NCBI RefSeq assembly: GCF_044324785.1
Contig: NZ_CP172127.1
Direction: 5' to 3' (one strand)
Source of the DNA: Escherichia coli
GTDB lineage: Bacteria; Pseudomonadota; Gammaproteobacteria; Enterobacterales; Enterobacteriaceae
DNA length: 64,000 nucleotides
Part shown: positions 9,957 to 51,773 of the stretch, piece by piece
Position numbering within the stretch: position 1 is the first letter of the stretch
Layout: every line of letters begins with the position of its first letter
The notes under the pieces: model-generated
Told to the model about the DNA's origin: nothing
Seen by the model: the letters and a program-made list of their open reading frames with translations, nothing else
Databases searched by the model: none
Program-made: the position numbers and the translations under genes

Positions 9957-9967
9957 ACACCACCAAT

Positions 9968-9997
9968 GGCTGGCCTGGAGAAATCGCCAGGCCAGCC
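9968..9997. terminator. Perfect hairpin between dcp and the CinA-like remnant (possible bidirectional terminator)
   Basis: ggctggcctgg-agaaatcg-ccaggccagcc inverted repeat; no strong T-run on either side, so strength is uncertain. Confidence 0.4.
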
Positions 9998-10000
9998 TGG

Positions 10001-29233: not shown

Positions 29234-30256
29234 TCAGAAATCGTATTTGCCGATATTCTCTTTGTTGAATATCACGCGCTCCGGTAACAGTACGATGCCA
29301 TTACCATCCGCTTCGTAGTCATAGCCCTGAACGCTGTTTGGCGAGACTTCCACCTGACCTACGCCCTGAATATCCAGCTTGTCGCCCGTTTTCATTGATC
29401 CTTTTTTCAATAATGCATCCGCGACATAAACTGATATTTTGCCTTGCTGAACCACATCCCACAGGCCAAATTCTTTCACCGTGCCGCGTTCCACATATGG
29501 ACGCATCACGTTTGGCGTACTGAATCCGACAATCGCAACTTTGTCATTTTTCAGGTTTTCTGCGGCTTGTGCGGCAGCGGGCAGGGCATTGGCATCGGGG
29601 GCGATAATGGCGTCGAGATCGCTATACGCTTTTAATATTCCTTCTGCGGTTTGTAATGATTTAGTGGCATCGTTATAGCCAAACTGCGTAGTGACAATTT
29701 CCCAGCCAGGATGCTCTTTGGCGATTTTCGCTTTCGCTTCTTTCACCCACTGGTTTTGGTCCGTAACGGTGGGGCTTGAGTAGAAAAACGCGACTTTGGC
29801 TTTGTCTTTATTCACCTGACGCGCCGCCATATCCACCAACATACCTCCCAACTGGGCGGGCGTTCCCTGATTAATGTAGTAAGAGCGGCACTCCGGTTTA
29901 GTATCAGAGTCCCAGGTCAGCACTCTCACACCACGTTGCATGGCGCGTTTCAGTGCCGGACACAAGCCATCAGGCGAAACCGCAGAAACGATAATGGCGT
30001 TATAACCCTGATTGACGAAGTTATTAATCAACTGTACCTGACCAGAAACACTGGGTTCTGTCGGCCCGTCGTAGGTCACATCAACGCCCAGCTCTTTACC
30101 CGCTTGTTGTGCGCCGTTGCCACCGCTGGTAAAAAATCCCACGCCAACCAGTTTGGGAATAAATGCAATACGCTCTGCGGCCTGCACATTCATAGAGATT
30201 GCGGCAATGCCAAACGCGCTAAGTAAGGCGATTTTCTTAAAGCGATGAAGTGTCAT
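29234..30256 (-). CDS. lsrB: LsrB, periplasmic AI-2 binding protein
   Basis: 340-aa ORF with a signal peptide; periplasmic sugar-binding family. Confidence 0.85.
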
Positions 30257-36691: not shown

Positions 36692-37221
36692 TTTCATTGA
36701 CAGCCACATCATGATGACCGTGGCTGTTAGTTTTTGAGTATTGGTATTCTCATTTCCCATCTTTTAGAGCTGGCTTGTTAAATGCCAGCTTGCAAATTCA
36801 TCGTTCCATCACCAGTACTATATTCAAGTGAAAATTGCTATTTTTCTTAAAGCATTAAGCATAAGCCTTATTTTATAGCGAATATTCCTAAAGGCATTAA
36901 TGGATGAAAAAGGGGTTTAATAAACTTCTTTTTTTAGCAATTAGTGCTATTCTTTGTTAAATATGATGATGATAATCTTCTTATTGAAAGAAACAGTCTT
37001 CTTATTAAGCAACAATAACTCATGGTTCATTTTTAAATAAAATAAGAACTATGCAATTTTTAATCTATCGATTCGAAAGTATTAGCAAATTAGCCAAATT
37101 GACACCTTCCCACCTCCAACCAACACTCAATACAGACCTCTGACAACTTAATAAGTTTCATTTTTAACGTCTGATGACTCATCTCTTTCGTGGCTGTATT
37201 GTTTGTATATGGAGCGTTTAT

Positions 37222-40200
37222 ATGAATAGAATCTATCGCGTGATATGGAATTGCACCCTACAGGTATTTCAGGCCTGCTCGGAATTAACTCGCAGGGTAG
37301 GTAAAACATCGACGGTTAATTTGCATAAATCCTCTGGACTGACAACGAAATTCAGTAGATTGACGCTGGGTGTTTTGCTGGCACTAAGCGGTTCAGTGTC
37401 TGGTGCGAGTCTGGAAGTTGATAATGATCAGATTACCAATATTGATACTGATGTTGCTTATGATGCCTACCTGGTTGGGTGGTATGGCACTGGAGTGCTT
37501 AATATTTTGGCTGGCGGTAATGCCTCCTTAACCACTATTACTACCAGCGTCATTGGTGGTAATGAGAACTCGAAGGGCACCGTTAATGTTTTGGGTGGCA
37601 CCTGGCGATTGTATGATAGCGGAAATAATGCAAGGCCTTTAAATGTGGGTCAATCCGGAACGGGGACGCTGAATATTAAACAGAAGGGTCACGTTGACGG
37701 AGGATATTTAAGGATAGGTTCTTCGACAGGAGGCGTCGGGACGGTCAATGTTGAGGGAGAGGACTCGGTTCTGACGACCGAATTATTCGAAATAGGGAGT
37801 TACGGTACAGGCTCATTAAATATTACGGATAAGGGTTACGTCACGAGTTCAATCGTCGCCATTGTAGGATATCAGGCGAACAGTAATGGTAAGGTTGTCG
37901 TTGAAAAGGGTAGCGAGTGGCTAATAAAAAATAATGATTCCTCAATTGAATTTCAAATTGGTAATCAAGGGACGGGGGAAGCGACTATTCGCGATGGGGG
38001 GCTAATTACGGCTGAAAATACGATTACCGGTGGCAATGCCACCGGTATCGGAACCCTGAATGTGCAGGATCAAGACTCTGTCATCACGGTACGCAGACTC
38101 TATAATGGATATTTCGGTAATGGCACAGTCAATATTTCCAATAATGGACTGATTAATAATAAAGAATATTCATTGGTGGGCGTTCAGGACGGGTCCCACG
38201 GTGTCGTCAACGTGACCGATAAAGGGCATTGGAATTTCCTCGGAACGGGCGAAGCTTTCCGCTATATCTATGTTGGTGATGCTGGCGACGGTGAACTTAA
38301 TGTCTCGAGTGAAGGCAAAGTAGATTCGGGAATTATCACTGCGGGGATGAAAGAAACAGGCACAGGCAACATTACTGTTAAGGATAAGAACTCCGTTATC
38401 ACTAATCTCGGAACTAATCTTGGTTATGACGGCCACGGCGAAATGAATATCAGTAATGAGGGGCTTGTTGTCAGCAACGGAGGAAGCTCACTCGGTTATG
38501 GAGAAACCGGCGTCGGGAAGGTTAGCATCACCACGGGGGGGATGTGGGAGGTCAATAAGAATGTCTATACCACTATTGGTGTTGCGGGCGTCGGAAACCT
38601 CAATATCAGCGATGGCGGTAAGTTCGTATCGCAAAATATTACTTTTTTGGGCGATAAAGCAAGCGGTATCGGCACACTGAACCTGATGGATGCGACATCA
38701 TCGTTCGATACTGTGGGTATTAATGTCGGTAATTTTGGTAGCGGTATCGTAAATGTCAGTAATGGTGCCACCCTTAATTCAACGGGCTATGGATTTATCG
38801 GAGGAAATGCCTCCGGTAAGGGGATAGTTAATATTTCAACGGATAGTCTCTGGAATTTAAAGACATCATCTACTAACGCACAATTGCTACAGGTCGGTGT
38901 ATTAGGCGCGGGTGAACTGAATATTACCACCGGAGGTATAGTTAAAGCGCGTGATACACAAATAGCTCTCAATGACAAAAGTAAGGGCGACGTGCGGGTG
39001 GATGGGCAGAACTCTCTTCTTGAAACATTCAATATGAACGTAGGGACGACAGGCACGGGTACGTTAACCCTGACGAATAACGGCACGTTGAATGTCGAAG
39101 GTGGAGAAGTTTACTTAGGTGTTTTTGAACCTGCTGTAGGAACGCTAAACATTGGTGCTGCTCACGGTGAGGCGGCGGCAGATGCCGGGTTTATCACCAA
39201 TGCGACGAAAGTGGAGTTTGGTCTTGGCGAAGGCGTTTTTGTCTTTAATCATACCAATAACAGTGATGCCGGCTACCAGGTCGATATGCTGATTACGGGT
39301 GACGATAAAGACGGAAAAGTGATGCATGATGCAGGCCATACGGTGTTCAATGCAGGGAATACTTATAGCGGTAAAACGCTGGTCAATGACGGCCTCCTGA
39401 CTATTGCGTCACATACGGCAGATGGGGTAACGGGCATGGGATCGAGTGAAGTCACCATTGCAAACCCCGGTACGCTCGACATTCTCGCATCAACGAACAG
39501 TGCAGGAGATTACACGCTGACCAATGCGCTCAAAGGCGATGGCTTGATGCGAGTGCAGCTGTCATCCTCCGACAAAATGTTTGGCTTTACCCATGCAATA
39601 GGAACTGAATTCGCCGGTGTTGCCCAACTGAAAGACAGTACCTTCACACTGGAACGCGACAACACCGCTGCGCTTACTCACGCGATGCTGCAGTCTGACA
39701 GTGAAAATACCACATCGGTAAAAGTGGGAGAGCAATCCATTGGTGGACTAGCCATGAATGGCGGTACGCTCACTTTCGATACGGATATACCTGCTGCGAC
39801 GCTTGCGGAGGGATATATCAGCGTCGATACGCTGGTTGTCGGCACGGGTGACTACACCTGGAAAGGCCGTAACTATCAGGTAAACGGGATGGGCGACGTG
39901 CTTATCGACGTGCCTAAACCGTGGAATGATCCCATGGCGAATAACCCTCTGACGACGCTCAATTTGCTGGAACACGATGATAGTCATGTCGGCGTTCAAC
40001 TGGTGAAGGCGCAAATGGTTATTGGGTCGGGTGGCTCATTAACGTTACGTGATTTACAGGGCGACGAGGTGGAAGCGGACAAAACGTTACATATTGCACA
40101 AAACGGGACAGTGGTCGCCGAGGGTGATTATGGATTCCGCCTCACGACCGCACCTGGTGATGGTTTGTATGTTAACTATGGGCTGAAAGCGCTGAACATC

Positions 40201-42642
40201 CATGGTGGGCAAAAGCTGACGTTAGCCGAACATGGCGGAGCCTATGGCGCAACGGCCGATATGTCGGCAAAAATCGGTGGTGAAGGGGATCTGGCAATCA
40301 ATACGGTGCGACAGGTTTCGCTTTCCAACGGTCAGAACGACTATCAGGGGGCAACCTACGTTCAGATGGGGACATTACGTACCGATGCGGATGGCGCGCT
40401 GGGCAATACTCGGGAACTAAACATCAGCAACGCGGCCATCGTCGATCTTAATGGATCGGCCCAGACGGTAGAGACATTCACCGGGCTGATGGGTTCGACT
40501 GTTTTGTTTAAAGAGGGGTCGCTGACGGTGAATAAAGGTGGGATCAGTCAGGGCGAACTGACAGGTGGCGGAAACCTGAATGTTACAGGGGGAACGCTGG
40601 CTATCGAGGGGCTTAATGCACGCTACAATGCCTTAACCAGCATTAGCTCAAATGCGGAAGTCAGCCTCGATAATACGCAGGGGTTAGGCAGAGGAAATAT
40701 TGCCAATGACGGTCTGTTAACGCTAAAAAACGTGACCGGCGAACTGCGTAATAGCATAAGCGGGAAGGGTATCGTGAGCGCAACCGCCAGGACAGACGTA
40801 GAGCTGGATGGCGATAATAGCCGCTTTGTGGGGCAATTCAACATTGATACAGGCAGCGCGCTCAGCGTCAACGAGCAGAAAAACCTGGGTGATGCTTCCG
40901 TTATCAATAATGGCCTGCTCACCATCTCCACTGAGCGTAGCTGGGCGATGACGCACAGTATCAGCGGTAGCGGTGATGTGACAAAACTGGGTACCGGGAG
41001 CCTGACTCTTAACAACGATTCCGCGGCGTATCAGGGTACGACGGATATCGTGGGTGGTGAAATTGCTTTCGGTTCCGACTCTGCCATTAATATGGCAAGT
41101 CAGCACATTAATATCCATAACAGCGGTGTGATGTCGGGAAATGTCACCACTGCAGGTGATGTGAACGTTATGCTAGGGGGGACACTGCGTGTCGCCAAAA
41201 CCACTATCGGCGGCAATCTGGAGAATGGTGGCACGGTTCAAATGAATAGCGAAGGGGGGAAACCGGGGAATGTGCTGACCGTTAACGGCAACTATACCGG
41301 AAACAATGGCCTGATGACGTTCAACGCGACGCTGGGCGGAGATAATTCACCCACGGATAAAATGAACGTGAAAGGCGATACCCAAGGGAACACTCGCGTT
41401 CGGGTTGATAACATTGGCGGCGTCGGTGCACAAACGGTCAACGGTATTGAACTCATTGAGGTCGGCGGTAATTCTGCAGGTAACTTCGCGCTGACCACCG
41501 GAACTGTCGAAGCTGGGGCTTACGTCTACACGCTGGCTAAAGGGAAGGGGAATGACGAGAAAAACTGGTATCTGACCAGTAAATGGGACGGCGTAACGCC
41601 AGCGGATACACCCGATCCCATCAATAATCCCCCTGTTGTGGATCCGGAAGGCCCATCAGTTTATCGCCCGGAGGCCGGAAGCTATATCAGCAACATTGCC
41701 GCAGCCAACTCGCTGTTTAGCCATCGCTTACACGACCGTCTGGGTGAGCCGCAGTATACAGATTCACTGCGAGTTCAGGGTTCGGCAAGCAGTATGTGGA
41801 TGCGTCATGTCGGGGGGCACGAACGTTTCAGGACCGGTGACGGCCAGCTAAATACTCAGGCTAACCGCTATGTATTGCAGCTAGGAGGCGATTTGGCGCA
41901 GTGGAGTAGCAACGCGCAGGATCGCTGGCATCTTGGCGTGATGGCAGGCTACGCCAATCAGCACAGTAATACTCAGAGTAATCGTGTGGGTTATAAATCG
42001 GATGGGCGCATCAGCGGTTACAGCGCAGGACTGTACGCGACCTGGTATCAGAACGATGCGAATAAGACCGGCGCTTATGTTGACAGCTGGGCGCTGTATA
42101 ACTGGTTTGATAACAGCGTCAGTTCCGATAACCGCTCGGCTGACGACTATGATTCTCGCGGTGTGACGGCCTCTGTTGAGGGTGGGTATACCTTTGAAGC
42201 GGGAACATTTAGCGGCAGCGAAGGGGCGCTGAATACCTGGTACGTCCAGCCACAGGTACAAATCACCTGGATGGGTGTGAAAGATTCTGACCATACCCGG
42301 AAAGACGGAACACGCATTGAAACAGAAGGCGACGGAAACGTGCAAACGCGGCTTGGGGTGAAAACCTACCTGAACAGTCATCACCAGCGTGACAATGGTA
42401 AACAGCGTGAGTTCCAGCCTTACATTGAAGCGAACTGGATCAACAACAGCAAAGTCTACGCCGTGAAGATGAATGGTCAAACCGTAAGCCGTGATGGTGC
42501 GCGTAATCTCGGTGAAGTACGTACCGGGGTTGAGGCGAAAGTAAATCACAACCTTAGCCTGTGGGGGAATGTCGGTGTGCAACTAGGTGATAAAGGCTAT
42601 AGCGATACTCAGGGCATGCTGGGTGTGAAATATAGCTGGTAA
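37222..42642 (+). CDS. yneO: Large AIDA-I-type autotransporter adhesin (type Va secretion)
   Basis: Start taken at MNRIYRVIWNCTLQVF, an extended autotransporter signal peptide, with GGAG at 37211-37214. Long beta-helical passenger with repeated GxGTLNI/GxGxLNV motifs; C-terminal beta-barrel ending ...GMLGVKYSW. One continuous ORF of about 1,806 aa from this start. Confidence 0.85.
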   Translation: MNRIYRVIWNCTLQVFQACSELTRRVGKTSTVNLHKSSGLTTKFSRLTLGVLLALSGSVSGASLEVDNDQITNIDTDVAYDAYLVGWYGTGVLNILAGGNASLTTITTSVIGGNENSKGTVNVLGGTWRLYDSGNNARPLNVGQSGTGTLNIKQKGHVDGGYLRIGSSTGGVGTVNVEGEDSVLTTELFEIGSYGTGSLNITDKGYVTSSIVAIVGYQANSNGKVVVEKGSEWLIKNNDSSIEFQIGNQGTGEATIRDGGLITAENTITGGNATGIGTLNVQDQDSVITVRRLYNGYFGNGTVNISNNGLINNKEYSLVGVQDGSHGVVNVTDKGHWNFLGTGEAFRYIYVGDAGDGELNVSSEGKVDSGIITAGMKETGTGNITVKDKNSVITNLGTNLGYDGHGEMNISNEGLVVSNGGSSLGYGETGVGKVSITTGGMWEVNKNVYTTIGVAGVGNLNISDGGKFVSQNITFLGDKASGIGTLNLMDATSSFDTVGINVGNFGSGIVNVSNGATLNSTGYGFIGGNASGKGIVNISTDSLWNLKTSSTNAQLLQVGVLGAGELNITTGGIVKARDTQIALNDKSKGDVRVDGQNSLLETFNMNVGTTGTGTLTLTNNGTLNVEGGEVYLGVFEPAVGTLNIGAAHGEAAADAGFITNATKVEFGLGEGVFVFNHTNNSDAGYQVDMLITGDDKDGKVMHDAGHTVFNAGNTYSGKTLVNDGLLTIASHTADGVTGMGSSEVTIANPGTLDILASTNSAGDYTLTNALKGDGLMRVQLSSSDKMFGFTHAIGTEFAGVAQLKDSTFTLERDNTAALTHAMLQSDSENTTSVKVGEQSIGGLAMNGGTLTFDTDIPAATLAEGYISVDTLVVGTGDYTWKGRNYQVNGMGDVLIDVPKPWNDPMANNPLTTLNLLEHDDSHVGVQLVKAQMVIGSGGSLTLRDLQGDEVEADKTLHIAQNGTVVAEGDYGFRLTTAPGDGLYVNYGLKALNIHGGQKLTLAEHGGAYGATADMSAKIGGEGDLAINTVRQVSLSNGQNDYQGATYVQMGTLRTDADGALGNTRELNISNAAIVDLNGSAQTVETFTGLMGSTVLFKEGSLTVNKGGISQGELTGGGNLNVTGGTLAIEGLNARYNALTSISSNAEVSLDNTQGLGRGNIANDGLLTLKNVTGELRNSISGKGIVSATARTDVELDGDNSRFVGQFNIDTGSALSVNEQKNLGDASVINNGLLTISTERSWAMTHSISGSGDVTKLGTGSLTLNNDSAAYQGTTDIVGGEIAFGSDSAINMASQHINIHNSGVMSGNVTTAGDVNVMLGGTLRVAKTTIGGNLENGGTVQMNSEGGKPGNVLTVNGNYTGNNGLMTFNATLGGDNSPTDKMNVKGDTQGNTRVRVDNIGGVGAQTVNGIELIEVGGNSAGNFALTTGTVEAGAYVYTLAKGKGNDEKNWYLTSKWDGVTPADTPDPINNPPVVDPEGPSVYRPEAGSYISNIAAANSLFSHRLHDRLGEPQYTDSLRVQGSASSMWMRHVGGHERFRTGDGQLNTQANRYVLQLGGDLAQWSSNAQDRWHLGVMAGYANQHSNTQSNRVGYKSDGRISGYSAGLYATWYQNDANKTGAYVDSWALYNWFDNSVSSDNRSADDYDSRGVTASVEGGYTFEAGTFSGSEGALNTWYVQPQVQITWMGVKDSDHTRKDGTRIETEGDGNVQTRLGVKTYLNSHHQRDNGKQREFQPYIEANWINNSKVYAVKMNGQTVSRDGARNLGEVRTGVEAKVNHNLSLWGNVGVQLGDKGYSDTQGMLGVKYSW

Positions 42643-42717
42643 ACCGTATAAGCCGCATGTCGAAGATGCATGCGGCTTAATATTGCCGACTTCAAACGAC
42701 TTTTAAATCCTCCTTTT

Positions 42718-44721: not shown

Positions 44722-44976
44722 GTGCAAATGAACCCCCCCTCTTTCCATCAACACTTCAGACAGCTTGCGGGAATGAGTCCACTCCGGTATCAGAAATGGC
44801 TACGCCTCAATGAAGCCAGGCGACTGATGCTGAATGAACATTACGATGTCACCACTGCAGCCTATGCTGTCGGTTACGAAAGCTTATCCCATTTCAGTCG
44901 GGAATATTCGCGGATGTTTGGAGAGTCACCTAAGAGAGATATTACCAGGTTAAGAAAGTCTGTCGGTCAGCTTTAA
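44722..44976 (+). pseudogene. yneL: AraC-family regulator fragment (C-terminal HTH only)
   Basis: 84-aa ORF containing only the second AraC HTH (..AAYAVGYESLSHFSREYSRMFGESP..); no ligand-binding or dimerisation domain upstream. Confidence 0.55.
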
Positions 44977-45409
44977 TAAACCCTGCACTTATCTGTTTAG
45001 AGCAATTCCGTGTTAGTTACACCAGGCAAACATTAACTATAGCTAATGATTTATAGCCATATAAACCATTAGTCGCTCTTGACCTTTCCTGACACTTCCC
45101 TTGTTCGCAATAATATTCTGTTTAGTCGCTGTTTATAAATATCATGCATAATGAAATCGTCATGTTATTTAGCGACATAAAATGTTTTTGCAAATACTCT
45201 CTACAACAAGTGCTGCAATAAACTTGTTGTGATTAGGTGTCCTTGTAATTTAAAGATATTATCGTTCTTCGTGAAATGTAATAACCCTGGAAACTATATT
45301 CTCAGGGCAACAACCAATTAAGAATGATTCTTGTTTTATAAGCAATAACAGAATGACTTAATTGTTAACTCTCTTTATTCAGCTACTTAAATATAAATTT
45401 TGGAGAATT

Positions 45410-45973
45410 ATGAAACTCAAACATGTCGGTATGATTGTCGTTTCTGTGTTGGCGATGTCGTCTGCTGCGGTAAGCGCAGCCGAGGGTGATGAATCAGTAA
45501 CGACCACTGTTAATGGCGGTGTTATTCATTTTAAAGGTGAAGTGGTAAATGCCGCTTGTGCGATTGATTCAGAATCAATGAACCAAACGGTTGAGCTGGG
45601 TCAGGTCCGTTCTTCTCGTCTGGCTAAAGCGGGTGACCTCAGCTCCGCCGTTGGCTTCAATATCAAGCTGAATGATTGTGATACCAATGTTTCCAGTAAT
45701 GCAGCTGTTGCATTCCTGGGTACTACTGTCACCAGTAATGACGACACATTAGCGCTGCAGAGTTCAGCGGCAGGCTCTGCCCAAAATGTCGGTATTCAAA
45801 TTTTGGACCGTACGGGCGAGGTATTAATACTTGATGGTGCCACTTTCAGCGCTAAAACTGACTTGATTGATGGCACGAATATACTGCCGTTCCAGGCTCG
45901 TTATATTGCTCTCGGGCAGTCAGTAGCTGGTACTGCAAACGCTGATGCGACCTTCAAAGTTCAATATCTATAA
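45410..45973 (+). CDS. Fimbrial major subunit (FimA-like pilin) of an F9/Yde-type chaperone-usher operon
   Basis: [23 protein letters not shown] signal peptide, GGAG ribosome-binding site at 45402-45405, conserved pilin Cys pair, C-terminal ...FKVQYL. Confidence 0.8.
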
Positions 45974-46326
45974 TTCAATCTTAAGGTGGCTATACGTCAT
46001 CTGAAATTGAAACAGGGTGTGTGTGGCATGGCTACGCACACCCGAGAAATTCACCAATGTTCATCTCATTATTAATGAGGAATAGTTTGTGTTTTGGAGC
46101 GGTATGAAAAAATCACATAATATCTAAACGTTCAATAAACAACAGTAGTTAAACTTACTGTTATTTAGAGTATTTACTTTATAGCAAGGTTTTCCTATTA
46201 AAAGAGAACCAACATTTATTTCAAACGCATTAAGTCTGGAAACCCGGCGACTCGCCAATGTATTAGCAACATTTACCGATTGTCTGATGTAACGGTTTCC
46301 CCGCTTATCCTCTTAACACATGGAGA

Positions 46327-47046
46327 ATGCATCAGATGCAAACTACGCGTACCCCCTACTCTGTTTCCTTTATGGCGACAGTGTTACTTTTATTGGTCTT
46401 TGCTTGCCATAGCACCATTGCCAACGCAGCTGTCGCACTGGGTGCGACGCGGGTAATTTATCCGGCAAACCAGAAACAGGTTTTATTGCCTGTCACGAAT
46501 AATGATCCTGCCAGTGTCTATCTCATTCAGTCATGGATAGAAAATGCAGGTGACCAAAAAGACACCCAGTTTGTCATTACCCCACCGCTTTTTTCCATGC
46601 AAGGTAAAAAAGAGAATACGCTGCGGATAATCAACGCCACTAATCATCAGTTACCAGGCGACCGTGAAAGCCTGTTCTGGGTTAATGTTAAAGCTATTCC
46701 TGCTATGGAAAAAGACCAGAAGAATGAGAATACATTACAGCTGGCAATTATTAGCCGCATAAAAATGTTTTATCGCCCCACGAACCTGGCAATGGCACCT
46801 GAAGAAGCGCCTGCAATGCTTCGGTTTCGTCGCAGCGGCAGCAAACTCACTCTTATTAATCCAACGCCCTACTTCATTACCGTAACAAATATGAAAGCAG
46901 GAAATAGCAATCTCCCAAACACCATGGTGCCGCCAAAAGGTGAAGTATCGGTGGATATCCCGCATGCTGCAACCGGGGATATCAGTTTTCAGACGATCAA
47001 TGATTACGGTGCATTAACTCCGCGTATTAAGGCAACCATGCAGTAA
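46327..47046 (+). CDS. Periplasmic fimbrial chaperone (PapD/FimC-like)
   Basis: 239-aa ORF with a signal peptide and PapD-like fold signatures; the true start may be an internal Met. Confidence 0.8.
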   Translation: MHQMQTTRTPYSVSFMATVLLLLVFACHSTIANAAVALGATRVIYPANQKQVLLPVTNNDPASVYLIQSWIENAGDQKDTQFVITPPLFSMQGKKENTLRIINATNHQLPGDRESLFWVNVKAIPAMEKDQKNENTLQLAIISRIKMFYRPTNLAMAPEEAPAMLRFRRSGSKLTLINPTPYFITVTNMKAGNSNLPNTMVPPKGEVSVDIPHAATGDISFQTINDYGALTPRIKATMQ

Positions 47047-47087: not shown

Positions 47088-49739
47088 ATGACATCCTTTC
47101 GTGCCGCATTTAAGGCATATCGTATGCATCAGGTGTTACTACTGCCTCGCTTTGCACGGCTTACCATTGCCCTTGGCTTAGCAACTGCGGTTTTTCCCGT
47201 TGACGCAGAGTATTATTTTAATCCACGGTTTTTAAGCAATGATCTTGCTGAATCTGTCGATTTATCCGCCTTTACTAAGGGACGCGAGGCACCACCTGGT
47301 ACATATCGGGTCGACATTTATTTGAACGACGAATTTATGACTAGTCGGGATATTACTTTTATTGCAGATGATAATAACGCAGATCTCATCCCATGCCTGA
47401 GTACAGATCTTCTTGTCAGTCTTGGCATAAAAAAATCAGCGTTATTAGACAATAAAGAACATTCGGCAGAAAAACATGTGCCGGACAACAGCGCATGCAC
47501 ACCACTTCAGGATCGTTTGGCCGACGCATCAACTGAGTTTGATGTTGGTCAGCAACATCTGTCACTCTCCGTTCCGCAAATTTATGTTGGCAGAATGGCT
47601 CGCGGCTATGTTTCTCCTGATCTGTGGGAAGAAGGAATAAATGCTGGGCTGCTAAACTATAGTTTTAATGGTAATTCTATTAATAATCGTAGTAACCATA
47701 ATGCAGGAAAATCCAACTATGCATATTTGAATTTACAGAGTGGCATCAACATTGGTAGTTGGCGACTGCGCGATAACTCAACGTGGAGTTATAACAGTGG
47801 GAGTAGCAATTCATCTGACAGCAATAAATGGCAGCATATCAATACGTCGGCTGAACGTGACATTATTCCCTTACGCTCACGCTTAACGGTAGGTGATAGT
47901 TATACCGATGGCGATATTTTTGATAGTGTGAACTTTCGTGGCCTCAAAATAAATTCAACAGAAGCGATGTTGCCCGATAGCCAACATGGTTTCGCTCCGG
48001 TGATTCATGGTATTGCCCGCGGCACCGCACAAGTGAGTGTAAAACAGAATGGATACGATGTTTATCAGACTACTGTCCCACCCGGCCCTTTTACTATTGA
48101 TGATATCAACTCTGCGGCCAATGGTGGTGATCTGCAAGTAACCATAAAAGAGGCAGACGGCAGTATTCAGACATTATATGTTCCTTATTCGTCTGTTCCG
48201 GTTCTCCAACGTGCTGGATATACGCGTTATGCGCTTGCCATGGGGGAATATCGTAGTGGAAATAACCTGCAAAGCTCCCCCAAGTTCATACAAGGTAGCT
48301 TGATGCATGGACTGGAAGGAAACTGGACACCTTATGGCGGAATGCAAATTGCAGAAGATTATCAGGCCTTCAACCTTGGTATTGGTAAAGATTTAGGACT
48401 TTTTGGTGCCTTTTCTTTCGATATCACGCAGGCCAATACGACACTTGCAGATGGCACCCGTCACAGCGGGCAATCGATTAAATCCGTCTACAGCAAATCC
48501 TTCTACCAGACGGGAACCAATATCCAGGTCGCAGGATATCGCTATTCTACGCAAGGTTTTTATAACTTATCCGACAGTGCCTACAGTCGAATGAGTGGTT
48601 ACACCGTCAAGCCTCCTACCGGAGACAGCAACGAGCAGACACAATTTATTGATTATTTTAATCTGTTCTACAGTAAGCGTGGTCAGGAACAAATAAGCAT
48701 CTCTCAGCAGCTTGGAAATTACGGTACGACATTTTTCAGTGCCAGTCGCCAAAGTTACTGGAACACGTCACGCAGCGACCAGCAAATATCATTTGGATTA
48801 AATGTGCCGTTTGGTGATATTACGACTTCGCTGAATTACAGCTTTTCCAATAATATATGGCAAAACGATCGGGATCATTTACTTGCTTTTACGCTTAATG
48901 TTCCCTTCAGTCATTGGATGCGTACAGACAGTCAGTCGGCATTTCGTAATTCAAACGCCAGTTACAGTATGTCAAACGATTTGAAAGGCGGCATGACCAA
49001 TCTATCAGGGGTTTATGGCACTCTGCTGCCGGATAATAACCTGAATTATAGCGTTCAGGTAGGTAACACCCACGGAGGTAATACATCGTCTGCCACCAGT
49101 GGTTACAGTTCTCTTAATTATCGTGGAGCTTACGGTAATACGAATGTCGGTTACAGTCGGAGTGGGGACAGCAGCCAGATTTATTACGGAATGAGTGGTG
49201 GGATTATTGCTCATGCTGATGGCATCACCTTTGGTCAGCCGCTGGGCGACACAATGGTTCTGGTTAAGGCTCCTGGCGCTGATAATGTCAAAATAGAGAA
49301 CCAGACCGGTATTCATACCGACTGGCGTGGCTATGCCATATTACCATTTGCGACAGAATATAGAGAAAATCGTGTCGCTCTTAACGCGAATTCCCTTGCA
49401 GATAATGTTGAACTGGATGAAACAGTAGTCACTGTCATCCCAACTCACGGTGCTATTGCCAGAGCAACATTTAATGCACAAATCGGCGGGAAAGTATTAA
49501 TGACGTTGAAGTACGGTAATAAGAGCGTTCCATTCGGTGCAATTGTCACACACGGAGAGAATAAAAATGGCAGCATTGTCGCGGAAAACGGTCAGGTTTA
49601 TCTGACTGGACTTCCACAGTCAGGGAAATTACAGGTTTCATGGGGCAAAGATAAAAACTCAAACTGTATTGTCGAGTACAAGCTTCCTGAAGTTTCTCCT
49701 GGTACCTTACTGAACCAGCAGACAGCAATCTGTCGCTAA
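47088..49739 (+). CDS. ydeT: Outer-membrane fimbrial usher (FimD/PapC-like), full length
   Basis: 883-aa ORF with usher N-terminal, barrel, plug and C-terminal domains. Confidence 0.85.
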   Translation: MTSFRAAFKAYRMHQVLLLPRFARLTIALGLATAVFPVDAEYYFNPRFLSNDLAESVDLSAFTKGREAPPGTYRVDIYLNDEFMTSRDITFIADDNNADLIPCLSTDLLVSLGIKKSALLDNKEHSAEKHVPDNSACTPLQDRLADASTEFDVGQQHLSLSVPQIYVGRMARGYVSPDLWEEGINAGLLNYSFNGNSINNRSNHNAGKSNYAYLNLQSGINIGSWRLRDNSTWSYNSGSSNSSDSNKWQHINTSAERDIIPLRSRLTVGDSYTDGDIFDSVNFRGLKINSTEAMLPDSQHGFAPVIHGIARGTAQVSVKQNGYDVYQTTVPPGPFTIDDINSAANGGDLQVTIKEADGSIQTLYVPYSSVPVLQRAGYTRYALAMGEYRSGNNLQSSPKFIQGSLMHGLEGNWTPYGGMQIAEDYQAFNLGIGKDLGLFGAFSFDITQANTTLADGTRHSGQSIKSVYSKSFYQTGTNIQVAGYRYSTQGFYNLSDSAYSRMSGYTVKPPTGDSNEQTQFIDYFNLFYSKRGQEQISISQQLGNYGTTFFSASRQSYWNTSRSDQQISFGLNVPFGDITTSLNYSFSNNIWQNDRDHLLAFTLNVPFSHWMRTDSQSAFRNSNASYSMSNDLKGGMTNLSGVYGTLLPDNNLNYSVQVGNTHGGNTSSATSGYSSLNYRGAYGNTNVGYSRSGDSSQIYYGMSGGIIAHADGITFGQPLGDTMVLVKAPGADNVKIENQTGIHTDWRGYAILPFATEYRENRVALNANSLADNVELDETVVTVIPTHGAIARATFNAQIGGKVLMTLKYGNKSVPFGAIVTHGENKNGSIVAENGQVYLTGLPQSGKLQVSWGKDKNSNCIVEYKLPEVSPGTLLNQQTAICR

Positions 49740-49752
49740 GGAACAAGAGATT

Positions 49753-50283
49753 ATGAAATACAATAACATTATTTTCCTCGGTTTATGTCTGGGGTTAACC
49801 ACCTATTCTGCTTTATCCGCAGATAGCGTTATTAAAATTAGCGGGCGCGTCCTCGATTATGGCTGCACAGTCTCATCGGATTCGCTTAATTTTACCGTAG
49901 ATCTCCAAAAAAACAGTGCCAGACAATTTCCAACGACCGGTAGCACAAGTCCAGCCGTCCCTTTTCAGATTACGTTAAGTGAATGCAGTAAAGGGACTAC
50001 GGGGGTTCGGGTTGCATTTAACGGTATTGAGGATGCAGAAAATAATACTCTGTTGAAACTGGATGAAGGAAGCAATACGGCCTCCGGTTTGGGTATAGAA
50101 ATACTGGACGGAAATATGCGTCCGGTGAAATTGAATGACCTTCATGCCGGGATGCAGTGGATCCCACTGGTACCAGAACAGAACAATATTTTGCCTTACT
50201 CCGCTCGTCTGAAGTCAACTCAGAAGTCCGTCAATCCGGGACTGGTGAGGGCTTCGGCAACCTTTACCCTTGAATTTCAATAA
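49753..50283 (+). CDS. ydeS: Fimbrial minor subunit (FimF-like)
   Basis: 176-aa pilin-like ORF with a signal peptide. Confidence 0.8.
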   Translation: MKYNNIIFLGLCLGLTTYSALSADSVIKISGRVLDYGCTVSSDSLNFTVDLQKNSARQFPTTGSTSPAVPFQITLSECSKGTTGVRVAFNGIEDAENNTLLKLDEGSNTASGLGIEILDGNMRPVKLNDLHAGMQWIPLVPEQNNILPYSARLKSTQKSVNPGLVRASATFTLEFQ

Positions 50284-50295
50284 TCAGAGTCAGAT

Positions 50296-50799
50296 ATGAA
50301 AAGACTTCACAAGAGGTTCCTGTTAGCTACGTTTTGCGCGTTATTCACAGCAACTCTCCAGGCCGCCGATGTCACTATCACTGTTAATGGTCGGGTAGTC
50401 GCTAAACCCTGCACTATTCAAACCAAAGAAGCTAACGTTAATCTCGGGGATCTTTATACGCGCAATCTGCAACAACCTGGTTCTGCATCAGGGTGGCACA
50501 ATATTACTTTGTCATTAACCGATTGTCCGGTTGAAACAAGTGCAGTGACGGCAATCGTGACAGGTTCAACTGACAATACGGGTTATTACAAAAATGAAGG
50601 TACTGCCGAAAATATTCAGATAGAGCTAAGGGATGACCAGGATGCGACGTTAAAAAATGGCGATAGCAAAACGGTTATTGTTGATGAGATCACTCGTAAT
50701 GCACAGTTTCCACTTAAGGCAAGAGCTATCACGGTGAATGGAAACGCAAGCCAGGGAACGATCGAGGCGCTAATCAATGTGATCTACACCTGGCAATAA
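50296..50799 (+). CDS. ydeR: Fimbrial minor subunit (FimG-like)
   Basis: 167-aa pilin-like ORF with a signal peptide. Confidence 0.8.
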   Translation: MKRLHKRFLLATFCALFTATLQAADVTITVNGRVVAKPCTIQTKEANVNLGDLYTRNLQQPGSASGWHNITLSLTDCPVETSAVTAIVTGSTDNTGYYKNEGTAENIQIELRDDQDATLKNGDSKTVIVDEITRNAQFPLKARAITVNGNASQGTIEALINVIYTWQ

Positions 50800-50858: not shown

Positions 50859-51773
50859 ATGGGTAAAACAATAAGTATGAAGCTTCTGTTCGGTATTTAT
50901 CTTCTATTAATGGCAGGCAAAGTTTTTGCCTTCAGTTGTAATGTCGATGGCGGGTCAAGTATTGGAGCAGGTACAACCTCTGTTTATGTTAATCTCGACC
51001 CTGTAATACAACCGGGCCAGAATCTGGTTGTAGACTTGTCTCAACATATCAGTTGCTGGAATGATTACGGCGGCTGGTACGACACTGATCATATAAACCT
51101 GGTACAAGGCTCAGCTTTCGCAGGCTCTCTACAGTCATATAAAGGATCGCTGTACTGGAATAATGTGACCTACCCCTTCCCGTTGACGACAAATACTAAT
51201 GTATTAGATATTGGTGATAAGACACCGATGCCATTACCGTTAAAACTCTATATTACCCCAGTCGGGGCGGCCGGTGGAGTTGTCATAAAAGCCGGGGAAG
51301 TTATTGCCCGTATTCATATGTATAAAATTGCCACGTTAGGAAGCGGAAATCCGCGTAATTTTACGTGGAATATTATTTCAAATAACAGTGTTGTTATGCC
51401 AACAGGCGGCTGCACTGTTGATAGTCGTAATGTCACCGTGAATCTCCCGGACTTTCCTGGAAGCGCAGAAATACCCCTTGGCGTATATTGCTCAAGCGAA
51501 CAAAAGCTCTCATTTTATCTTTCGGGTGCCACCACTGACAGTGCCCGACAAGTGTTTGCTAACACAGCACCAGATGCAACAAAAGCATCGGGAGTGGGTG
51601 TCTCTCTGATGCGTAATGGAAAAATACTGGCTACGGGAGAAAACGTCTCCCTGGGGACAGTAAATAAAAGCAAAGTACCTCTGGGTTTAAGCGCAACCTA
51701 TGGACAAACAGGAAACAAGGTTGCAGCCGGAACAGTTCAGTCAGTCATTGGTGTCACTTTTATCTATGAATAA
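50859..51773 (+). CDS. ydeQ: Fimbrial tip adhesin (FimH-like two-domain adhesin)
   Basis: 304-aa ORF; N-terminal lectin-like domain ([14 protein letters not shown]...[20 protein letters not shown]) plus a pilin domain. Confidence 0.8.

Follow-up and report, generated by a model that had tools for sequence, protein, structure and literature searches.

A conserved hairpin without a U-tract after the major pilin gene of the Escherichia coli F9 fimbrial operon, a candidate protective 3' stem-loop

The major pilin gene of the F9 (Fml/Yde) chaperone-usher operon of Escherichia coli is followed by a long untranslated spacer, near the start of which lies a stable GC-rich hairpin. We report that this hairpin is selectively conserved, and we put at about even the chance that it acts as an element of the f9 mRNA, i.e. 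as a stem-loop protecting the 3' end of the pilin (fmlA) cistron. F9/Fml fimbriae play a role in chronic urinary tract infection, in cattle colonisation and in plant attachment. To our knowledge, control of their expression is known at the promoter only (H-NS, temperature) and possibly at the translation of fmlA, and the F9 papers that we read contain no discussion of the spacer. A conserved RNA element after the pilin gene would add a post-transcriptional layer setting the ratio of pilin to assembly machinery, and such an element would have to stay intact in expression constructs.

Results

The F9 operon and its pilin-chaperone spacer

The window, i.e. the whole stretch of 64,000 nucleotides analysed here, contains the F9 operon as six genes on the + strand, identified from open reading frames, NCBIfam matches and RefSeq annotation (Table 1). 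The F9 (Yde/Fml) identity was assigned from near-identical loci annotated in RefSeq in E. coli O157:H7 and other strains, and the pilin product is 99-100% identical to the RefSeq "fimA" proteins of other strains. Upstream of the operon lie hipBA and an AraC-type fragment, and ydeP lies downstream of it. The upstream fragment (44722-44976) is the C-terminal part of an AraC-family gene which, in RefSeq strains, is an N-terminally truncated pseudogene; among strains, the most variable part of the F9 locus is the region upstream of the f9 promoter. The promoter itself is conserved. In strain CFT073, 5'-RACE defined a -35 element TAGTCG, a -10 element CATAAT and a start 251 nt upstream of the pilin ATG (PMC3966885), and both the elements and the distance match in the window.

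A sequence-only reading of this DNA had proposed a gap of about 350 bp between the pilin and chaperone genes of a chaperone-usher operon. Both genes are indeed recognised by their NCBIfam models, and the gap that follows the pilin stop codon (TAA, 45971-45973) measures 353 nt to the first in-frame chaperone ATG at 46327, where the longest chaperone ORF begins, or 362 nt to the ATG at 46336. The latter (MQTTRTPY...) is more probably the chaperone start, since it is the RefSeq start in other strains and lies 10 nt past the Shine-Dalgarno sequence, whereas the ATG at 46327 lies only 1 nt past it. Of 5,426 complete E. coli genomes, 3,635 have the spacer, and the 30 records listed among these show no RefSeq feature at this place. 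The E. coli B strain C2566 has a damaged F9 operon, in which the pilin gene is truncated at its 5' end and internal stops or frameshifts interrupt the chaperone and usher genes; the post-pilin hairpin is nevertheless intact there.

Table 1 Features of the F9 operon and of its pilin-chaperone spacer (positions in the window)
Feature	Coordinates	Strand	Elements or basis
f9 operon promoter	45123-45159	+	-35 TAGTCG 45123-45128; -10 CATAAT 45147-45152; start G 45159
Major pilin gene, F9 (fmlA; Z2200/ECs2113/c1931 homologue)	45410-45973	+	NCBIfam FimA, 2.7e-51
Weaker composite stem-loop directly past the stop codon	45974-46011	+	Predicted; in the RNAalifold consensus
GC-rich 13-bp hairpin, 3-nt loop, without U-tract	46015-46043	+	Folding, conservation
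AU-rich (72% A+U), untranslated, fast-evolving segment	46044-46230	+	
C-rich, G-poor 5' leader of the chaperone gene	46231-46335	+	Shine-Dalgarno GGAG 46322-46325
Periplasmic chaperone gene	46336-47046 (alternative ATG 46327)	+	NCBIfam FimC, 6.6e-77; RefSeq start
Usher gene	47088-49739	+	
FimF-like subunit gene	49753-50283	+	
FimG-like subunit gene	50296-50799	+	
Adhesin gene	50859-51773	+	

A stable hairpin without a U-tract follows the pilin gene

The hairpin begins 41 nt past the pilin stop codon and has the sequence GGGTGTGTGTGGC-ATG-GCTACGCACACCC. An inverted repeat had been proposed at about 46012-46045; it is present and slightly longer than described, with 13 pairs (8 G-C, 3 A-U and 2 G.U) closing an AUG loop in the RNA. 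RNA folding, which the sequence-only reading had suggested as a check, predicts a stable structure: in a 51-nt context, the minimum free energy is -24.1 kcal/mol, compared with -11.0 +/- 2.5 kcal/mol for 200 dinucleotide shuffles (z = -5.19), none of which folds as well. When every 35-nt window of the 64 kb was folded on both strands, the hairpin came out as the second most stable hairpin locus, well above what chance would give.

Other strong hairpins were seen in the window. The most stable local one, at 9963-9998, is a near-perfect palindrome (GGCTGGCCTGG...CCAGGCCAGCC) that folds on both strands at -26 kcal/mol and is possibly a bidirectional terminator. Another (42646-42680, -18.9 kcal/mol) lies after the stop codon of an ORF of 1,822 codons for an autotransporter of the ECSE_1600 family (37174-42642), which is intact here and frameshifted in O157:H7 strain ATCC 43890.

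The F9 hairpin is oriented. Both of its non-Watson-Crick pairs are G.U pairs in the sense RNA, where an antisense RNA would have C.A, and the sense strand accordingly folds at -23.8 kcal/mol versus -16.0 kcal/mol for the antisense strand, i.e. is more stable by 7.8 kcal/mol. Seen as DNA, the inverted repeat has 13-nt arms which are 85% complementary.

Such a structure, directly past a highly expressed structural gene, could be a leaky intrinsic terminator, at which RNA polymerase itself would stop in a fraction of rounds. The hairpin has the GC-rich stem-loop of an intrinsic terminator (about 5-14 bp with a short loop), and true terminators made of a hairpin and a U-run occupy the same position after the pilin gene in distant operons of Proteus mirabilis (L053), Izhakiella (L064) and Acinetobacter (L069). 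The U-rich tract, however, is absent in F9: the 3' tail of the hairpin reads GAGAAAUUCACC here and GAGCAAUUCACC in most strains, with no U-run in either, and a consensus terminator scan does not report the hairpin. As a hairpin of this kind is expected to terminate poorly by itself (restated in PMC6061677), we consider it unlikely that the F9 hairpin is a leaky terminator.

The hairpin is an island of conservation

Among nine E. coli alleles, a single one of the 29 hairpin sites segregates, against 24% of the 41 nt before the hairpin and 22% of the 87 nt after it. This small-sample difference between the hairpin and the adjoining spacer is only moderately significant (Fisher p = 0.017, or p = 0.07 when one deliberately chosen variant is added). 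The contrast was also examined across complete genomes, using three queries of equal length (40 nt) that cover the hairpin and its flanks. Of 3,590 complete E. coli genomes, 3,550 have the hairpin 40-mer at 95% identity or more; the next 40 nt (46050-46089) reach that level in 515 of 3,384 genomes, with 80-90% identity in 1,617. Thus, the hairpin forms a sharp conservation island between two hypervariable flanks. The conserved part includes a slippage-prone (TG)n run, and the loop and the G.U pairs are conserved likewise. The hairpin is selectively conserved.

The rare variants keep the stem or weaken it slightly: one (A7) turns a G-C pair into G.U and another (E67) introduces one mismatch. 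In a third, both arms are shortened, and the assembly from which it comes is rich in indels. No double-sided covariation was seen, since the orthologues available are all E. coli alleles, at least 92% identical; in a scan of one genome per bacterial species, the F9 chaperone turned up in E. coli-like DNA only. The support for the hairpin structure consists of thermodynamics and conservation. Together, the contrast between hairpin and flanks and the placing of the G.U pairs on the sense strand point to a structured RNA within the operon transcript.

These features bear on whether the inverted repeat could instead be an element of the DNA, such as a palindrome bound by a protein, a cruciform or one copy of a repeat family like REP/BIME. 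The 13-nt arms and the unusual alternating TG/CA sequence would fit such an element. Its imperfect complementarity at the DNA level does not, the mismatches being tolerated only as G.U pairs in the sense RNA, and a repeat family is contradicted by the copy number, which is exactly one place per genome in all 3,590 genomes. We hold a DNA element to be very improbable. A mobile or repeated element was also rejected: there are no phage matches, and the six matches in a plasmid collection, several of them multi-megabase, look like chromosomal DNA.

The rest of the spacer is variable and weakly structured

Between the stop codon and the hairpin, a composite stem-loop is predicted, with an outer helix (45974-45979/46006-46011) and an inner helix of 7 bp (45984-45990/45996-46002). 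In the inner helix, a G.U pair becomes A-U in three alleles and one pair is broken in one allele, with no double-sided changes; the support for this putative element is weak.

Downstream of the hairpin, about 290 nt are devoid of any gene-length ORF and hold only mini-ORFs of 6-12 codons. The AU-rich segment comes first and folds no better than shuffled sequences (z = -1.3). Nucleotide diversity over 46044-46130 is 0.086, twice that at third codon positions of the chaperone gene (0.040). RNase E-type RNWUU motifs occur in the AU-rich segment at 4.3 per 100 nt versus 1.8 in the flanking coding sequences; the common GAGCAA allele lacks the one closest to the hairpin (46047). The chaperone leader that follows has a diversity of 0.034, about the synonymous level, and a folding z of -1.6. 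In 78-nt windows, the ratio of C to G is below 1 for starts at 46010-46090 and 1.25-2.08 for starts at 46190-46350, so that C-rich, rut-like RNA sets in about 150 nt past the hairpin and not immediately after it.

Several smaller features were noted in the spacer. An AU-rich hairpin at 46136-46167 (TAAACAACAGTA / TACTGTTATTTA, 92% complementary) is nearly invariant inside the poorly conserved segment, and the sole change seen in its stem, from A to G, retains a U.G pair. A run of A at about 46106-46112, just past an ATG at 46104, counts seven residues in the window and in its closest alleles and six in most strains. That ATG opens a mini-ORF (MKKSHNI) preceded by a Shine-Dalgarno sequence (GGAG, 46096-46099). 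The A6/A7 indel switches its frame and length, giving a 15-residue alternative, and a conserved peptide from this mini-ORF is unlikely. An ORF of 44 codons on the minus strand, with a TTG start, was likewise rejected as it has no support.

The composition of the spacer raises a further explanation, namely that it acts as DNA, either as an internal promoter from which the chaperone and usher genes are transcribed or as a downstream H-NS nucleation site contributing to the silencing of the operon, the hairpin being incidental. The G+C content is 26-32% over 46050-46250, similar to that of the H-NS-bound promoter region at 45100-45400, and H-NS represses f9 (PMC3966885); in the literature, F9 is described as poorly expressed in standard cultures and H-NS-silenced. 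Moreover, the pilin gene and the distal genes were not in step in one microarray of O157 exposed to bile, where Z2200 (pilin) changed 1.4-fold and the mRNAs of ydeQ and ydeR were raised 2.2-fold (PMC3769235, Table 7). In the spacer, however, no sigma-70-like promoter is found at 9/12 matches on either strand, and the high-affinity H-NS motif is not enriched, with two matches at 2 mismatches, about the window average. The AT-rich segment is also the least conserved, and the hairpin would be left unexplained. A role of the spacer as DNA is therefore, in our estimate, quite improbable.

The spacer occupies the slot of fimI in related operons

As a comparison set, we used 78 fim-type loci from other genera, obtained through a chaperone search. 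Where the chaperone is 60-70% identical, almost all loci share one order: a fimA-like gene, about 70 bp, a fimI-like gene, 20-100 bp and the chaperone gene. In type 1 pili, FimI is the subunit that terminates and anchors the rod. F9 lacks a fimI-like gene, and its spacer occupies the fimI slot. A decayed fimI pseudogene was considered and rejected: 37 neighbouring fimI-like genes were used to make a FimI HMM which, run with --max against the six frames of the spacer, returned negative bit scores only, and blastn of the spacer against the 78 other-genus loci gave only short matches (E of at least 0.04) at scattered and non-corresponding positions. Any fimI gene lost here would thus have left no recognisable trace.

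The missing gene suggests that the spacer might be debris of the loss of a fimI-like gene and the hairpin functionless, its invariance being due to chance or to local mutation bias. F9 alone is without the fimI-like gene that nearly all of its close relatives have. Most of the spacer, moreover, changes at least as fast as synonymous sites do, and its middle and 3' parts fold like shuffles. But debris would hardly account for an island of conservation kept between hypervariable flanks in spite of the slippage-prone run, nor for the rank of the hairpin in the 64 kb and for imperfections that are all G.U on the sense strand; nor is any trace of fimI detectable in the spacer. We give a functionless hairpin only a small chance.

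The F9 hairpin differs from FimR2

The sequence-only reading had also suggested a comparison with the fimA-fimI spacer of type 1 fimbriae. That spacer encodes an sRNA, FimR2, to which the F9 hairpin is not homologous. FimR2 derives from the fimA 3'UTR, is processed by RNase E and binds CsrA (Raad et al. 2022, NAR; PMC9723502), and its gene in K-12 (fimR2, b4838) starts 10 nt past the fimA stop codon. About 40 related operons have a conserved GC hairpin 20-30 nt past the stop codon of the fimA-like gene. In these relatives, the fimA-fimI gap carries a GGA and then a GGGCC-AGGAN-GGCCC hairpin which aligns with K-12 fimR2, and the stem of this family shows compensatory changes. A covariance model made from 38 members (R1) and run with filters off found no match at E <= 10 in 45974-46335 and none in any F9 locus, true members scoring 25.6-48.4 bits. 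The F9 loop, AUG, contains no GGA. A FimR2 homologue was hence rejected, as were two lesser candidates: a likeness by eye to the K-12 fimA 3'UTR (ACGTCAT...CAGGG...CACCC) is not significant (p = 0.27), and a marginal R1 match at 29697-29731 lies antisense inside an ORF and is a chance match. The F9 hairpin therefore shares the position of FimR2, in the 3'UTR and within tens of nucleotides of the pilin stop codon, and lacks its sequence and structure signature. A post-pilin hairpin is thus found family-wide, and the F9 hairpin is an element distinct from FimR2.

FimR2-like elements after fimA-like genes also occur beyond Escherichia and Salmonella, in Klebsiella, Raoultella, Kluyvera, Citrobacter and Serratia as well as in Yersinia, Pantoea, Erwinia and Aeromonas. 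In many of them, the first GGA lies in the loop of a helix of 3-4 bp, with some covariation and 70% of cells paired; the first GGA of FimR2 in E. coli K-12 is described as single-stranded.

The pilin 3'UTR of F9, with one or both of its hairpins, might nevertheless be released as a stable sRNA, an analogue of FimR2 with another sequence and other targets. The paralogous slot in fim and in the roughly 40 related operons does encode such an RNase E-processed sRNA, and the conservation of the F9 hairpin, loop and G.U pairs included, is tighter than exonuclease blocking seems to require. On the other side, the spacer gives no FimR2 covariance match, has no GGA in its loop and matches no Rfam family, the Rfam search of the spacer returning only noise (E of at least 2 in all cases). 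A released sRNA, which is compatible with a protective stem-loop and not exclusive of it, seems to us improbable.

A proposed role as a protective 3' stem-loop

What the spacer offers is a stable stem-loop without a U-rich sequence after it, as expected of a protective stem-loop, and downstream of it RNA free of ribosomes, AU-rich at first and C-rich further on; it is on this arrangement that the reading of the hairpin as a protective stem-loop is based. In E. coli, Rho-terminated transcripts end just past stable stem-loops that have no U-run, with rut sites downstream, and these stem-loops protect the transcripts from PNPase and RNase II (PMC6061677). Protective hairpins at 3' ends lead to differential decay in malEFG, papBA and cfaAB (PMC5927463). 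Within the family of F9, nearly every related pilin gene has a hairpin after it.

By analogy, the following sequence of events can be proposed for F9. Transcription from the G at 45159 would run through the pilin gene into the roughly 290 nt of untranslated RNA. The ribosome-free transcript would be cut by RNase E in the AU-rich segment or else terminated by Rho, for which the C-rich, G-poor segment (about 46190-46360) could serve as a loading site. Exonucleases acting 3' to 5' would trim the RNA back to the hairpin and stall there, and a stable pilin mRNA of about 885 nt would remain. Escaping transcripts alone would go on to encode the chaperone, the usher, the tip subunits and the adhesin, and the net outcome would be more pilin message than assembly-gene message. 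We infer the formation of 3' ends at the hairpin, the nuclease or termination factor involved and the effect on pilin relative to chaperone.

A partial terminator or attenuator after the pilin gene, keeping pilin transcript in excess, had been put forward in the sequence-only reading. One part of that proposal stands: a structure past the major pilin gene is seen family-wide, and the F9 hairpin combines stability and selective conservation with specificity for the sense strand. The device proposed fares less well, the tail and the negative terminator scan making intrinsic termination the weaker reading. A protective stem-loop, which we hold to be about as likely as not, would agree with that proposal in its purpose, an excess of pilin, but not in its device, a partial intrinsic terminator.

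Expression data touch on this proposal from two sides. The difference between pilin and distal genes in the bile microarray is a weak hint in support of a protective stem-loop. In addition, temperature control of fmlA is seen at the level of a translational fusion, with expression at least 6-fold higher at 18 C (PMC7766294, section 2.2). Together, these data suggest that there are post-transcriptional layers in F9 expression.

Discussion

The F9 post-pilin hairpin is an unannotated element of a well-known kind, since protective or attenuating hairpins after the pilin gene are familiar in fimbrial operons; the class of mechanism belongs to operon control as already understood and brings no conceptual advance. 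The absence of FimI and FimR2, both present in the sister operon, bears on the length of the F9 pilus, on the termination of its rod and on cross-regulation between fimbriae. A more far-reaching history can be imagined, in which a duplication gave rise to fim and F9, after which F9 would have lost fimI together with the CsrA-sponge sRNA FimR2 and gained a conserved 3'UTR sRNA of its own, with its own targets. This history is unlikely. If it were true, each paralogous fimbrial operon would emit a distinct 3'UTR signal, with cross-talk to other adhesins or to motility.

Comparison with known systems

Four kinds of known element invite comparison with the F9 hairpin. The first is the class described by Dar and Sorek (PMC6061677), to which it is alike in being a stable stem-loop without a U-tract that comes after a coding region and is followed by untranslated RNA, C-rich in part. 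It differs in lying inside an operon and not at its end, and in that the region with more C than G comes about 150 nt downstream and not immediately.

The second kind comprises the stabilisers of malE-malF, papA (papBA) and cfaB (CFA/I) (PMC5927463), which are hairpins past a cistron needed in excess. The F9 hairpin likewise precedes assembly genes needed in smaller amounts, and its structure is conserved. However, the malE-malF element belongs to the multi-copy REP sequences and the F9 hairpin is single-copy, and the papA structure has been described as a terminator resistant to RNase.

Thirdly, the pilin terminators of the distant operons L053, L064 and L069 are, like the F9 hairpin, GC-rich stem-loops between the pilin and chaperone genes; they have a clear U-run and F9 has none.

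Finally, FimR2 belongs to a paralogous operon, lies at the same position after the pilin stop codon and is also a hairpin without a U-tract. The F9 stem, however, has 13 bp versus 5-6 bp, it carries no GGA loop and it shows no similarity in sequence or to the model; and where fimI follows FimR2, about 290 nt of non-coding RNA follow the F9 hairpin.
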